Shown in pieces: positions 53,004 to 64,000 of a stretch of 64,000 nt of DNA; the stretch's first letter is position 1; each line of letters starts with the position of its first letter. The position numbers and the translations under genes are program-made. Location: positions 34,087 through 98,086 of IMG/VR virus record IMGVR_UViG_3300025883_000003; one strand, written 5' to 3'. Under the pieces are notes generated by a model, which worked only from the letters and a program-made list of their open reading frames with translations, was not told the origin of the DNA and searched no databases. This stretch comes from a virus.

Positions 53004-56000
53004 GTGGTCATACGCAAAGCTGAGCGATCTAAGTGGCACACCAATGCCTCTTCGGGGTTCCCTTCGATGGTCTCGCCCGCCAAGGTTCGCGCTCGACTCG
53101 TCGCCGGCAAAGGCGAGCTGCTAGCGCAACAGCTCGCCGCCAATCGCATCTTCCGTGAGAACGAAACCACCGAAGACGCGCCGCTTCCCCGGCATATCAT
53201 CGCCATCGAAGACGTGACGCACGGCTTGGGGCTCGATGCAGCCGACGAACAAGCGGTTCAGCGCATCATTCTCGATACGAACGCGCACTTCGATCAGACC
53301 ACGCAGACCCATCGGCTGACATTGGCGCGCGCGAGCTTTGTCACGACGCTTCGGGCGATGCCTCATATCAGCTCCGACATTCGCATGGAGCTGACGAAAC
53401 GGGCCATCGCGTATTGGCGCCGGAACACGCAGACCGACTACGGCAAACCGCCCACGATCCGCTCGATCGCGGTCAAGAGTGAGCCCGCGCTCGTGATCAA
53501 GGCGGCCAAGCGCTTGAACGGCTCCGAGAAGCGCGTCGAAATGCCGCAGATCATCGCCCAAAAGCTCCCGGCGTTCCTGAAAGAGCTGCGCAAGGACGGC
53601 ACCAAGTGCAAGCGCAAGAGCTACGACGCCAGCAAGCTCAAACCGATGCAAAACAAGCTCGATACGTCCAAAGTTGAGCGGTTGAAGAGCACCCCCGAAG
53701 CCCTGAAAAAGCCGATCGTGGTGAGCCATGACGGCTTCATTCTCGATGGGCACCATCGTTGGGCCGCATGCAAGGCGTTGGGGCAAAAAGTGCCGTGCGT
53801 AGAGGTCGCGCTCGACAAAGACGAGCTGCTAGAGCAAGCCCGTGACTTCGATGGGGCTGAGTTTCGCAAAGCCGGGGCCTACATCGGGCCTAGAGGCGGC
53901 AAATGGGCCGATGCGAAGCACACTATCCCCTGGAAAGACCCCGGCTTAGAGCGCAAACGACGGCTGTTGACGCAGATCGAAGGCAGTCTGACGGCTGCCA
54001 CGCGCTCCGCGTCCCGATCGCTCGACTCCCGTGACGACGACGCCATGCGCGCGGCCGGCCATGACGTGCGCAAGGTCCGTGAACGCTTGTCGCGCGTCGC
54101 TGGGGAGCACGAGATCCACGCCAAGAGCCCCGGCGCGCTCGGAAAGCAGTACCGGACGCTCGATAAGCGCATCGCTGGGCTCGAAACGGAGCTGCGGAGC
54201 ACGCCATCGAAGCAGATGGAAGCCGCGGCGACGAAGACGATCCGCGCAGAGCTGGCGGCTGACTCGCGTGACGAGCAGTACCGTACGCAAGACGCGGATT
54301 TCATTCTTGGCGATGGGTCCGTAGACAAAGCGGCGCTCTACCAAGAGGCCGGCATGGCGCTCCGCAATCTTCGGATGCTCCCTGAGCGCGCCGATCTCAA
54401 GTGGCTCGTCAAGCTCGTCAAAAAAGAGGCGAACCTACACGAGCGCAACGTCACCAAGCCGCTTCACCGGCAGCCCAAGAACAAGTACCGCAAAGCCGAC
54501 AAGATCCCCGGCGGGCTCGCCGACAAAAAGAAGCCCTCCGACTTCGACAAAGCGAAGCTCGAAGCGGGTATCAAAGTTGAAATGGAGCACACGAGCGATC
54601 GGTCCATCGCGACTGAGATCGCCATGGATCACTTGACCGAAGACGCGGACTACTACGAGAAGCTGAAGACTATCGAGAAGTCATCGAAGCCGCCGCCCGG
54701 CTACGTCCTGGCGCCGGGCAGCAAGAAGGGGGCGTACCGCAAGAAGGTCGCCGGCAAGTGGGACCATTGGTATCCCGACGCTAAGAAGCCCAAGCGCAAG
54801 GCCAAGGCCAAGAAAAAGCCCGCTCGCGAGCCGCATATCAACGGCTGGGCGGGCGTGGTCGGCTCGGAGCTGGGCGACCATCTGCGCGGGATACTCGTGC
54901 GCTACGGCAATCTCGAAGCCCTGCAACAAGAGCTGAAGGAAACGCTCGACCCGGAGAAGCAAAAGGAGCTGACGCAGGGGATCGCCAACTATCGGGTCAA
55001 CGAAATGACCGGGATTCCGTCGAAGGCAGAGACGCACAAGCTCTTGGAGCAGTCCATGAAGCTCCGCACGTTCGATGACGTGCAGAAGTTCACCGAGACC
55101 GTGGTGGATCTCGGAGACCACAAGATCCAGGTTATCAACTTGCTCGGCAACTCGCTTGGCTGGGCCATCCGCGCCCCCGGAGCACCCCCGAAAAAGGGTG
55201 ACGACGGGTATTCGCAGCACCAAAAGCTCGTCAAGAAGGTCAAAGCCTTCGAGCAAGACACCTCGTGGCGCCGGCCGAAGAGCACGGACCCGCAAGAAGT
55301 GGCCGACACCTACAACTTGGCCATGATCGATATCAACCCGACGCTCCCTGAGCCTATCCAAACGCACATTACAGGCATGCTCAGCAACGCGTTCGAAGAC
55401 TTGGCCGACGTGCTGGGTGCGGTGAAGCTCAGCCACGGCTCGCTTCAGATTCGAGTGACGGCCCAAGAGGCGCTGTACGCTCCCGGCTACGCGTACGGAG
55501 CGCAGTACGTGCGCCCCCGGAGCCGCAACCCCGAAGATTGGGACCGGGATTGGAACTTCGGCGGCGAAGAAGCGACGCCTTCCATGGGCTCGCACGGGCT
55601 CCAAGAGAAGATGGAACAAGCGCCCCCGATGATCCGCATTTCCATGGAACGAGCTTCCGCGCTCGCTCATGAGTACGGGCATGCGCTCGATGACGCGACG
55701 GCCATCGTCAGCGCCAACCCGGCCATGAGCGAAAAGCACGCCGATGAGATTGCGGCCAAGGAAGCGGTGCACATGCTCTTGCTCCAAAGCCCCATGCGGG
55801 ACCGCGCAGAGCGGGTCGAGCGCAAGCGGGGGCCTAGAGGATATTGGGGCTCGCCGGCTGAAATGTGGGCACGCGGTTTCGAGCAGTACGTGCACAAGAA
55901 GCTGAACGACAAGGGTCGGTTCAACTCGCTTCTGACGCACCACACCTATGACGGCCGGGTGGACGATGGGGTTTTCATGGCCCCCAAAGAGTTCGCTCCC

Positions 56001-56555
56001 ATCGAAGCGGCCTTCGACAAGTGGCTCGGCATGGCCAAAGAGCTGGGGATGCTCGAAAAGGCATTCCGGCTTCTCTTCGGCGACCCGACGCTCGTCGTGA
56101 AGGCCCGTTCGATCCTCACGCCGAACATCCAAGTGGGCGAAGCGCGCGGGGCACCCCGCTTCGACACGCCCCCGATGCCCGACTACCAGAGCATCTATTA
56201 TCCCCCAGAGAACGCTGACTCGCACAAGCGGGAGCGCGCGCAGTCGCAGAACCGACGCCGCGCCGATGCGGAGCGTGTGCGAGGCAAGTGGGGCTTTCAC
56301 GGCAAGGTGATTCCCGACAAGCCCGTGCTCCGGTGGAAGCTCGACCGCGAAGAGAGCGAAGATCCCTTCGACCACACCGGGGTCAAGCAAGAGCACAAGC
56401 CCCGCAAGAGCCCCAAGCTCATGGCGCGTGCCCGGATCAAGGCCGGCGCCACTACCTATCCCGAAGAGGGCACGGAGCTTCCGGGCGATGGGAAGCGAAA
56501 GCGAAAGCGGAAAAAGAAGAAAAAGCAAGTTAGGCTCACGGCGAGGAAGCAATGA
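53004..56555 (+). CDS. Polyvalent/polyprotein A, probable head-packaged cargo: ParB/Srx-like, DUF5661-like and LPD1-like zincin domains
   Basis: KPIVVSHDGFILDGHHRWAA; GIKVEMEHT..IAMDHL.E..YY.KL; LAHEYGHALD and YWGSPAEMWARGFEQYV; one GPRGGKWAD tag. Confidence 0.85.
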   Translation: MVIRKAERSKWHTNASSGFPSMVSPAKVRARLVAGKGELLAQQLAANRIFRENETTEDAPLPRHIIAIEDVTHGLGLDAADEQAVQRIILDTNAHFDQTTQTHRLTLARASFVTTLRAMPHISSDIRMELTKRAIAYWRRNTQTDYGKPPTIRSIAVKSEPALVIKAAKRLNGSEKRVEMPQIIAQKLPAFLKELRKDGTKCKRKSYDASKLKPMQNKLDTSKVERLKSTPEALKKPIVVSHDGFILDGHHRWAACKALGQKVPCVEVALDKDELLEQARDFDGAEFRKAGAYIGPRGGKWADAKHTIPWKDPGLERKRRLLTQIEGSLTAATRSASRSLDSRDDDAMRAAGHDVRKVRERLSRVAGEHEIHAKSPGALGKQYRTLDKRIAGLETELRSTPSKQMEAAATKTIRAELAADSRDEQYRTQDADFILGDGSVDKAALYQEAGMALRNLRMLPERADLKWLVKLVKKEANLHERNVTKPLHRQPKNKYRKADKIPGGLADKKKPSDFDKAKLEAGIKVEMEHTSDRSIATEIAMDHLTEDADYYEKLKTIEKSSKPPPGYVLAPGSKKGAYRKKVAGKWDHWYPDAKKPKRKAKAKKKPAREPHINGWAGVVGSELGDHLRGILVRYGNLEALQQELKETLDPEKQKELTQGIANYRVNEMTGIPSKAETHKLLEQSMKLRTFDDVQKFTETVVDLGDHKIQVINLLGNSLGWAIRAPGAPPKKGDDGYSQHQKLVKKVKAFEQDTSWRRPKSTDPQEVADTYNLAMIDINPTLPEPIQTHITGMLSNAFEDLADVLGAVKLSHGSLQIRVTAQEALYAPGYAYGAQYVRPRSRNPEDWDRDWNFGGEEATPSMGSHGLQEKMEQAPPMIRISMERASALAHEYGHALDDATAIVSANPAMSEKHADEIAAKEAVHMLLLQSPMRDRAERVERKRGPRGYWGSPAEMWARGFEQYVHKKLNDKGRFNSLLTHHTYDGRVDDGVFMAPKEFAPIEAAFDKWLGMAKELGMLEKAFRLLFGDPTLVVKARSILTPNIQVGEARGAPRFDTPPMPDYQSIYYPPENADSHKRERAQSQNRRRADAERVRGKWGFHGKVIPDKPVLRWKLDREESEDPFDHTGVKQEHKPRKSPKLMARARIKAGATTYPEEGTELPGDGKRKRKRKKKKKQVRLTARKQ

Positions 56556-63222: not shown

Positions 63223-64000
63223 TGGGGCTCTTAGACAATATCCGAACGGCGGGGTCGGGCGCTCTTGACGGTGCCCTACAGTCATTGCGCAAGGCTGACG
63301 AGCTAGGTGACGACGTACCCTTCGACGCCATGCAAGACGCGCTCATGAAGGGCGGGCTCGCGCAGCCCACCGACGAGAAGCCGCGTGGTCTCTTTCATGA
63401 TCCCTACAGCGTCATGGATTGGGGCGGCTGGCGGCAGCGTCCCAGCATTCTCACGTACGATACGCTCCGCCAGATGAGCATATCGAACACGGTGATCGCG
63501 GCCATTATCCAGACCCGCGTGAACCAGCTCAGCCAGTTCGCCGTGCCGCAGCAAGGCAACTACGACCGGGGCTACCGCATTATCCTTCGGGACCGTCGCG
63601 ACAAGAGTAAGGTCATGACGAAGGCGCAGCAATCGAAGGCCACGGAGCTAGAGCGCATGCTCGAATCGACCGGGTACATGCTCCCGAACGAGAAGCCCTA
63701 CGACCGCGATTCGTTCCGCGGTTTCTTGAAGAAAATCGTGCGTGATTGCCTCACCTACGACCAAATCTGCATCGAGAAGGTGCGCGACCGCAAAGGCCGG
63801 ATCAGCCGCTTCATCGCGCTGCCCACGGAGACCATTCGCCCGGCCGTCGCAGACGTGGAGCACATGGACCCCGAAGAGCGTCGCAACCGCGTCGCCTACG
63901 TCCAGGTCTACGAAGACTCTGTGATCGCGGAGTTCGGACCCGACGATCTGGCGTGGAGCATCATGAACCCACGCTCCGACCTACGCGTGAACGGCTTCGG
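63222..64000 (+). CDS. Portal protein, SPO1/Twort (Herelleviridae)-like, 3'-truncated by window
   Basis: Hand translation from ATG 63222: ...AIIQTRVNQLSQF...RDSFRGFLKKIVRDCLTYDQICIEKVRDRKGRISRFIALPTETIRP...YVQVYEDSVIAEF...IMNPRSDLRVNGF; no stop, so absent from the ORF track. Confidence 0.88.
   Translation, partial: MGLLDNIRTAGSGALDGALQSLRKADELGDDVPFDAMQDALMKGGLAQPTDEKPRGLFHDPYSVMDWGGWRQRPSILTYDTLRQMSISNTVIAAIIQTRVNQLSQFAVPQQGNYDRGYRIILRDRRDKSKVMTKAQQSKATELERMLESTGYMLPNEKPYDRDSFRGFLKKIVRDCLTYDQICIEKVRDRKGRISRFIALPTETIRPAVADVEHMDPEERRNRVAYVQVYEDSVIAEFGPDDLAWSIMNPRSDLRVNGF

Follow-up and report, generated by a model that had tools for sequence, protein, structure and literature searches.

The window analysed here is a stretch of 64,000 nucleotides, bases 34087–98086 of the complete 107.8-kb IMG/VR virus record IMGVR_UViG_3300025883_000003, which comes from an uncultured phage with 61% G+C. 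Towards its 3′ end, three large open reading frames (ORFs), here called A, B and C, and the gene for the portal protein lie back to back on the plus strand, with overlapping stop and start codons between all four (Table 1). A contains a ParB-like region recognised through PHROG matches, DUF5661, an HExxH motif and LPD1 (E 2.5e-13), and B contains a Zeta_toxin match (E 5.7e-31) together with two unknown modules, while C had no Pfam match. The HEYGH sequence of A adjoins LPD1, yet the Pfam search gave no peptidase match there, and additional Pfam scans of the unassigned modules gave no matches. A, B and C fit the definition of polyvalent proteins given by Iyer et al. 2017 (PMC5512222): at least two unrelated effector domains, LPD-type domains included, share a polypeptide (A and B), and the genes sit among virion packaging genes, namely those for the portal and a MuF-like protein. 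Downstream of the window follow, in order, the rest of the portal gene, a gene for a 251-amino acid (aa) protein, a MuF-like protein with a zincin-like end, the head maturation protease, a scaffold-like protein and the capsid protein.

A short motif consisting of a hydrophobic residue, any residue, Lys and then Ala, Gly or Ser recurs through A, B and C and at the start of the portal protein; we write it hydrophobic-x-K↓[A/G/S], with the arrow at the bond that follows the lysine. The original prediction on this DNA held that paired sites of this kind mark every domain boundary of the three proteins as well as the portal N-terminus, and that they are cut by a prohead protease encoded downstream. 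All of the motifs that it listed are present where it had placed them, except that LRKS of C starts at 63064 and not at 63065, and they fit the motif class, except that AVKS has Ala instead of a bulky hydrophobic residue at P3, the third position before the bond. The three proteins also carry a conserved tag, GP[RK]GGKWAD, and all six of its copies in A–C have hydrophobic-x-K-[AG] ahead of them. For comparison we used two related genomes, G002 (58.9 kb) and G001 (101.3 kb), which have the same three genes with different module content.

Table 1. Genes, modules and motif sites at the locus (window positions unless another frame is named; the arrow stands at the bond after Lys)
Feature	Position	Strand	Description
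ORF A	53004..56555	+	1183-aa polyvalent protein; N-terminal module, ParB-like cassette (aa 168–290), tag-headed module (291–498), DUF5661 mini-module (499–559), second-type tag (~576–592), HExxH/LPD1, C-terminal module (1034–1183)
ORF B	56552..60253	+	1233-aa polyvalent protein; leader, tag 1, basic linker, Zeta-toxin-like kinase (192–364), tag 2 + module, tag 3 + module, short C-terminal tail
ORF C	60250..63222	+	990 aa; leader, tag 1, helical module C1, tag 2, module C2, small beta module C3 (~620–710), conserved C-terminal C4 (783–990)
Portal gene	63222..64000, continues beyond window end	+	594 aa; start overlaps C stop (TAATG)
IRK↓A	53010..53021	+	residues 3–6 of A; status hinges on GTG start
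AVK↓S ... VIK↓A pair	53469..53504	+	spacer SEPALVIK; VIK↓A is left junction of ParB cassette, which is absent in G001
FRK↓A	53862..53873	+	tag-proximal; C-terminal end of ParB-like cassette; indel junction
YRK↓A	54486..54497	+	end of tag-headed module, start of DUF5661; G002 deletion junction
IEK↓S	54672..54683	+	end of DUF5661, upstream of second-type tag
LEK↓A ... VVK↓A pair	56052..56105	+	14-aa spacer; between zincin/LPD1 and C-terminal modules of A
MNK↓A ... LTK↓A pair	56600..56653	+	leader of B; LTK↓A tag-proximal
MHK↓S	57791..57802	+	directly 3′ of Zeta-like module
VKK↓S ... VVK↓G pair	57992..58045	+	spacer GTFTVPTKRFVVK; VVK↓G tag-proximal
VRK↓S ... LRK↓G pair	59105..59143	+	LRK↓G tag-proximal
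LDK↓S	60218..60229	+	followed by 8-residue tail ending B; moderate candidate: close relatives, analogous LRK↓A with FTVP..RFVV tail in G001
MVK↓G	60280..60291	+	tag-proximal; ends leader of C
LSK↓G	61225..61236	+	tag-proximal; between C1 and tag 2
VKK↓S ... MAK↓S pair	62362..62430	+	3′ of C3; relatives' homology blocks begin at either; G002 has MGKN in place of MAK↓S
TRK↓S ... LKK↓G pair	62560..62598	+	before C4; absent from original list; LKK↓G in linker of low model confidence
LRK↓S ... VVK↓G	63064..63135	+	near C-terminus of C; weak candidate: conserved in close relatives only; LRKS in predicted helix
LRK↓A, LMK↓G	63285..63353	+	portal N-terminus
DUF5661 mini-module	54498-54680	+	A aa 499–559
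Second-type tag	54729-54779	+	A aa 576–592
Lys-rich run	56480-56552	+	near end of A; KRKRKRKKKKK
C3	62107-62380	+	C aa ~620–710
C4	62596-63222	+	C aa 783–990
MuF-like head protein	L001:2850-4598 (genome 99849-101597)		two genes downstream of portal
Head maturation protease	L001:4947-5687 (genome 101946-102686)
Capsid protein	L001:6640-8052 (genome 103639-105051)
Cys-rich ORF	36214-36582	-	122 aa

Motif sites at module joints and ahead of tags

Among the three genomes, insertions and deletions of cassettes break exactly at motif sites, namely FRK↓A, YRK↓A, VIK↓A, VVK↓A and K↓S. Specifically, G002 is without residues 291–498 of A and reads ..FRK↓A-G-G-DKIPGG.. across the junction, so that the deletion runs between FRK↓A and YRK↓A, and G001 is without the ParB-like cassette (residues 168–290), with its junction between VIK↓A and FRK↓A. 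The C-terminal module of A begins after PTLVVK↓A in all three genomes, and the domain preceding it is a different one in G001. Homology between C and its G001 counterpart starts exactly after the K↓S at 707/708, and C of G002 has an additional 192-aa module that ends in ..KKK↓S; the spacer after it shows homology to the N-terminal leader of C, which identifies internal spacers and terminal leaders as the same element. When C was searched against 1.84 billion representative proteins, homology blocks started or ended at 319–326, 704–714, 722–726 and 776–782.

The best-conserved site of all is LKK↓G ahead of C4, which the original list had omitted: hydrophobic-x-K↓G(G) occupies this position in 41 of 41 distant homologues of C4, many of which have K↓S 8–15 residues upstream. 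Most distinct homologues of the Zeta module have a site at the MHK↓S position, often a paired one, and ParB-like modules end in [FY]-x-K↓[AS], as at FRK↓A, in eight of nine distant homologues. DUF5661 homologues have a site in front, at the place of YRK↓A, in 8 of 12 cases and one behind, at the place of IEK↓S, in 10 of 12, and the sole distant zincin/LPD1 homologue (P0047) keeps the LEK↓A...K↓A pair. A homologue search with residues 400–1233 of B returned full-length matches to close relatives only, all other matches being to the tag alone. With about 60 residues and, in most homologues, a site on either flank, DUF5661 has the behaviour of a mini-module, and the family may stand for a peptide that is set free instead of a domain within a larger fold.

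We collected tags across IMG/VR with an exact back-translated pattern, which gave 96 tag-bearing stretches with 93 unique contexts. The motif precedes the tag in 83 of these contexts, with its Lys at a variable −5 to −9 from the tag core, and in six of the ten remaining contexts Arg or His takes the place of the Lys or adjoins it. At the tag-proximal sites, P3 is Leu in 63 of 83 and the residue after the bond (P1′) is mostly Ala or Gly; a second site, mostly K↓S, lies 5–35 residues further upstream in 41 of 83. The density of sites per 100 aa is 2.2 between −13 and −36 from the tag, 0.49 farther upstream and 0.13 downstream. The tag loci carry the head module of the window phage, with its portal at 57 loci, a MuF-like protein at 56, a protease at 24 and a capsid protein at 13. 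A second, different tag, of the G-x-Y-R-K-x-V-x-G-K-W-x-x-W-Y-P-D type, is preceded by hydrophobic-x-K↓[AGS] in six of six cases, and sites also flank modules that have no tag, which makes site and tag separable elements. The leaders of C (13 aa) and B (33 aa) end in MVK↓G and LTK↓A, and leaders in IMG/VR can be as short as Met-Asn-Lys. The second tag type occurs in A and at the N-termini of B and C in G001 (L112), where it stands in for the GPRGGKWAD tag, and a third type (GGKYYRR.PTG.PK.PWRY.Y) heads the Zeta-like modules of distant homologues.

Counted over A, B and C together, [ILVMFY]xK[AGS] occurs 31 times against 20.7 ± 4.4 in shuffled sequences (P = 0.016); the count becomes 25 (P = 0.19) after removal of the six tag-linked sites, and 32 against 21.6 expected if Trp is also allowed at P3 ([ILVMFYW]xK[AGS]). 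Richness in Lys, Ala, Gly and Ser alone would yield about two-thirds of the raw count, and chance probably accounts for about one-third of the individual matches. Explanation by Lys/Ala richness alone, which the original prediction had named as its refutation, therefore half holds for the count and does not hold for the positions of the sites. The original list was also selective, leaving out twelve matches (VDKA, FDKA, IPKG, WVKG, YQKG, LFKS, VSKA, YEKS, YNKG, YLKG, LKKG and MTKA), several of them within folded domains. YQKG lies inside the Zeta_toxin match and FDKA just ahead of the matched DUF5661 stretch. In an AlphaFold model of C (108-row alignment; predicted local distance difference test score, pLDDT, 71), YLKG is part of a beta strand with pLDDT ~95, and in a model of B 380–1233 (four-sequence alignment), whose mean pLDDT of 41.7 is too poor for boundary calls, VSKA and YEKS fall in helices of one moderately confident domain. 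All of the omitted matches except LKKG are probably chance matches. Four of eight sites in the C model touch low-confidence linkers (P = 0.23), so the association of sites with linkers in that model is not significant. Nine of 29 gaps between sites span at most 20 aa, where 5.3 would be expected (P = 0.05); pairing is thus marginal within the window, whereas it holds in the family, as the second sites upstream of tags indicate. The claim that every domain boundary is marked was overstated, as the border between basic linker and domain at ~609 of A and the C2/C3 border (613–620 of C) have no site.

The same motif in head proteins

The prohead protease expected downstream is present: the head maturation protease matches phrog_1028 (E 2e-43), and near-identical copies in related contigs match the SPO1 protease (~E 1e-33). 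The SPO1 and Staphylococcus phage proteases exceed the cut-off of PF04586 Peptidase_S78 (23.7 and 23.4 vs 21 bits), and the phage's own enzyme is clearly homologous to these S78-type proteases. A sequence search of the PDB with the protease gave no matches.

The capsid protein is 30–33% identical to those of SPO1 and other Herelleviridae. The full-length, 463-aa capsid protein of a Staphylococcus myovirus (PDB 5lii) reads ..VVK↓SFQTGYG.., and the mature, 439-residue chain of 9row begins at exactly that Ser. By alignment, this junction is LRK↓A in the window phage, LNK↓A in SPO1 and LQK↓A in Bordetella phage PHB04, and it is hydrophobic-x-K↓A/S in 12 of 12 capsid proteins from related IMG/VR contigs. 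The proposed fit to a capsid cleavage site is borne out, in that the motif at the joints of A, B and C equals the maturation junction of the family's capsid protein.

Other head proteins carry the motif as well. It stands just after the catalytic domain in each phage's protease, as LAK↓S or a variant. The scaffold, a substrate known to be degraded, has 10 sites against 1.29 expected (P 1e-6) and is the most enriched of 120 ORFs in the genome, followed by the protease with 7 against 1.29. Scaffolds of SPO1, Staphylococcus phage BS1 and PHB04 have 11, 9 and 8 sites, and seven IMG/VR scaffolds have 8–12 against 1.1–1.6 expected. The sites predicted at the portal N-terminus hold across the family: of 42 distinct related portals, 41 carry one site or more within the 75 residues that lead up to the conserved core, where a rough background of ~0.5 sites per 100 aa would lead one to expect ~30%, and in the portal of SPO1 there are two such sites, LSK↓A and LEK↓S.

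Past LAK↓S, the tail of the protease is a near copy of the post-cleavage N-terminus of the capsid protein (SLSAGSAVGDPG..FPLRTESLE vs ALVAGSDVNDPG..FPLRTESLE). The same mimicry occurs in SPO1, BS1, PHB04 and ~20 IMG/VR relatives, and it may be a means of building the protease into the shell. In the MuF-like head protein, LRK↓S is followed by the zincin-like end (HEIGH), which matches Peptidase_Mx1 weakly; in close relatives, LRK↓A and a GPRGGKWAD tag stand at the same place, the site being kept and the downstream cassette changed. The giant methylase and helicase of PHB04 have no tags and few sites, so this phage offers no ready model for the cargo part.

A proposed processing route and its alternatives

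We consider it probable that the sites in A, B and C are prohead-protease sites in polyvalent cargo that is loaded into the capsid. A, B and C would then be cargo polyproteins co-expressed with the portal and built from cassettes, each running from a short amphipathic leader or spacer through hydrophobic-x-Lys↓Ala/Gly/Ser and, often, a GPYIGPRGGKWAD-type tag to a basic linker and an effector domain, and often closed by a further x-Lys↓Ser. The motif would be what the phage's own prohead serine protease, of the S78 type (SPO1/Staphylococcus-myovirus-like), recognises, and the same enzyme would remove the capsid propeptide, cut its own tail, shred the scaffold and probably trim the portal N-terminus. 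After entering the prohead, the polyproteins would be cut into about a dozen products, among them the ParB-like nuclease, the DUF5661 peptide, the zincin/LPD1 and Zeta-like kinase modules and the unknown modules, with each downstream product retaining its tag. Paired sites would release short spacer peptides, and the fragments would exit with the DNA at infection. Spacers and leaders share a pattern of acidic, hydrophobic, x, x, Leu, x, Lys with the residues that precede the capsid-protein and portal sites, and the simpler reading of the spacers would be as the protease-recognition side of the site. Their suggested role as disposable scaffold-binding signals, put forward in the original prediction, is not supported.

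The positions and conservation of the motif and its identity with the maturation junction of the capsid protein are shown here; that A, B and C are packaged, cleaved and ejected we infer. Several points weigh against this proposal. Packaging is deduced from gene position and family only, and the protease of this phage, at 17 bits, falls short of the Pfam S78 cut-off of 21. The raw motif count in A–C barely exceeds the composition-based expectation, and two of the listed sites, VKKS at 705 and LRKS at 939 of C, fall in predicted helices. Given the shortness of the motif and the abundance of Lys, Ala, Gly and Ser, individual sites are not callable with certainty. Finally, tag repeats alone would attract recombination, which could explain cassette junctions that lie at tags.

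One could also imagine that the motif is never cleaved and is a structural part of a leader-plus-tag docking element, such as a helix cap before the Gly-rich tag, with a merely convergent resemblance to the capsid junction. Its physical coupling to the tag in IMG/VR and the position of several sites at predicted helix ends would fit such a role, which we nevertheless regard as unlikely: the tag offset varies, the motif stands ahead of the second, unrelated tag and of untagged modules, it can be as short as Met-Asn-Lys at a protein start, Arg or His replaces or adjoins the Lys in six of the ten exceptional contexts, and scaffolds are enriched in it without having any tags.

The bonds could be genuine cleavage sites of another enzyme, either a host protease or one of the embedded zincin-like metallopeptidases (HEYGH by LPD1 in A, HEIGH closing the MuF-like protein), at work ahead of packaging or once the cargo has been ejected. 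Iyer et al. 2017 (PMC5512222) proposed that metallopeptidase domains release the modules of polyvalent proteins, citing the processed DdrB of P1, and the HExxH motif with LPD1 in A and the HEIGH sequence with its weak Peptidase_Mx1 match after LRK↓S in the MuF-like neighbour count for this possibility and against the prohead protease. The motif, however, is also found at the capsid propeptide junction, in the protease tail and 8–12 times in scaffolds, all of them classic prohead-protease substrates, and the sites are kept where the zincin module has been replaced, as in A of G001. We judge a different enzyme to be distinctly unlikely. That the matches reflect nothing but Lys/Ala/Gly/Ser richness, with the listed ones picked near presumed boundaries, is highly improbable, since the small excess in A–C, the matches left off the list and the marginal pairing and linker tests agree with it, but conservation in distant homologues, the cassette junctions and the scaffold, capsid and portal data cannot be compositional; for the core sites, these comparative data already refute chance.

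A broader speculation we advance only tentatively and hold to be somewhat doubtful. Throughout the lineage with SPO1-like heads, the protease motif plus a short amphipathic leader might be a general 'load, cut and release' code that capsid protein, portal and scaffold have in common with interchangeable effector cassettes. Paired sites would excise disposable prohead-targeting or protease-recruiting peptides, comparable to the targeting sequences of T4 or the spacer peptides of retroviruses, and the retained GPRGGKWAD-type tag would act later, in the capsid or in the host. Flanking any domain with these elements could then make it injected cargo.

Relation to known systems and further observations

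Among the closest known systems are the SPO1-like and Twort-like myoviruses (Herelleviridae), which have homologous portal, protease, scaffold and capsid proteins, the same hydrophobic-x-K↓S/A capsid junction, and the motif in protease tail and scaffold as well. They differ in that their motif is tied, in the literature searched, to head proteins only, whereas that of the window phage also brackets polyvalent modules and heads a conserved tag; the host lineage of the window phage, with its 61% G+C, is also a different one.

In T4, the internal proteins IPI–III and Alt have an N-terminal capsid targeting sequence that is removed by the prohead protease gp21; proteases of the gp21 type cut after Glu (Leu/Ile-x-Glu), and the T4 cargo consists of single proteins. 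The window phage resembles T4 in having a short N-terminal leader that ends at the head-protease motif on otherwise unrelated cargo, which would likewise be packed in the prohead, trimmed and injected. It differs in its S78-type protease, its Lys-ending motif, its polyproteins with internal and often paired sites, and its retained tag. As the motif ends in Lys instead of Glu and the protease is S78-like, the system is not a member of the T4 type.

In phiKZ and SPN3US, one prohead protease is reported to cut many head and ejection proteins at a short consensus, with the processing mapped by mass spectrometry (PMC10052503, PMC7411985). Protease lineage and motif differ from those of the window phage, and the cargo there comprises mostly separate gene products instead of interchangeable effector cassettes. 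Iyer, Burroughs, Anand, de Souza and Aravind 2017 (PMC5512222), who also describe the packaging of T4 Alt, predicted that polyvalent proteins are delivered with the DNA and proteolytically released; they attributed the release to embedded metallopeptidases, or to assemblin-like peptidases fused at the C-terminus, as a proposal, and gave no site motif. A, B and C match their description in having several unrelated domains (DdrB-ParB-like, Zeta-like, zincin and LPD1) beside portal and MuF genes, but their joints are marked by a defined motif common to head proteins. Full-text literature searches for the tag sequence, for phi812/SPO1 head-protein cleavage and for polyvalent proteins together with prohead protease returned no report linking a defined prohead-protease motif to polyvalent joints.

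We think it rather likely that the system is a variant of T4/phiKZ-type cargo processing, with an HK97/S78-type protease that cuts after Lys, polyvalent substrates and often paired sites as its new features. It would supply a concrete rule, the hydrophobic-x-Lys↓Ala/Gly/Ser bond, for splitting large polyvalent phage proteins into injected enzymes, and would assign the reading of this bond to the head protease rather than to the embedded metallopeptidases proposed in 2017. Such a rule would predict the ends of mature proteins for hundreds of uncultured phages and explain why effector domains are swapped as cassettes at exactly these joints. It also suggests that the portals of this lineage are N-terminally trimmed, and it points to a possible route for loading chosen proteins into the heads of laboratory model phages.

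Several minor features of the genome deserve mention. A Cys-rich ORF on the minus strand has four xKG matches (P ~9e-4 among 120 ORFs) and ends in KG directly before its stop, in agreement with a AAGGATAA junction motif from an earlier note; we rejected it as a candidate substrate, as its xKG matches probably are compositional. C4 is a conserved module of ~210 aa without a Pfam match, and no further module comes after it in nearly all homologues examined; its end reads CP[IV]HG..DLTK.QNL...C.C, and it lies directly before the portal gene in all three related genomes. C3 is a small beta-rich module with GHH ... GRSH motifs, a pLDDT of ~95 and no Pfam match, and it has more than 50 homologues, many of them stand-alone proteins of 90–300 aa. 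The Lys-rich run near the end of A has a counterpart in the protease tail (GGKKKKKKK, L001 ~5520-5560), and runs of 5–8 Lys are kept in relatives.

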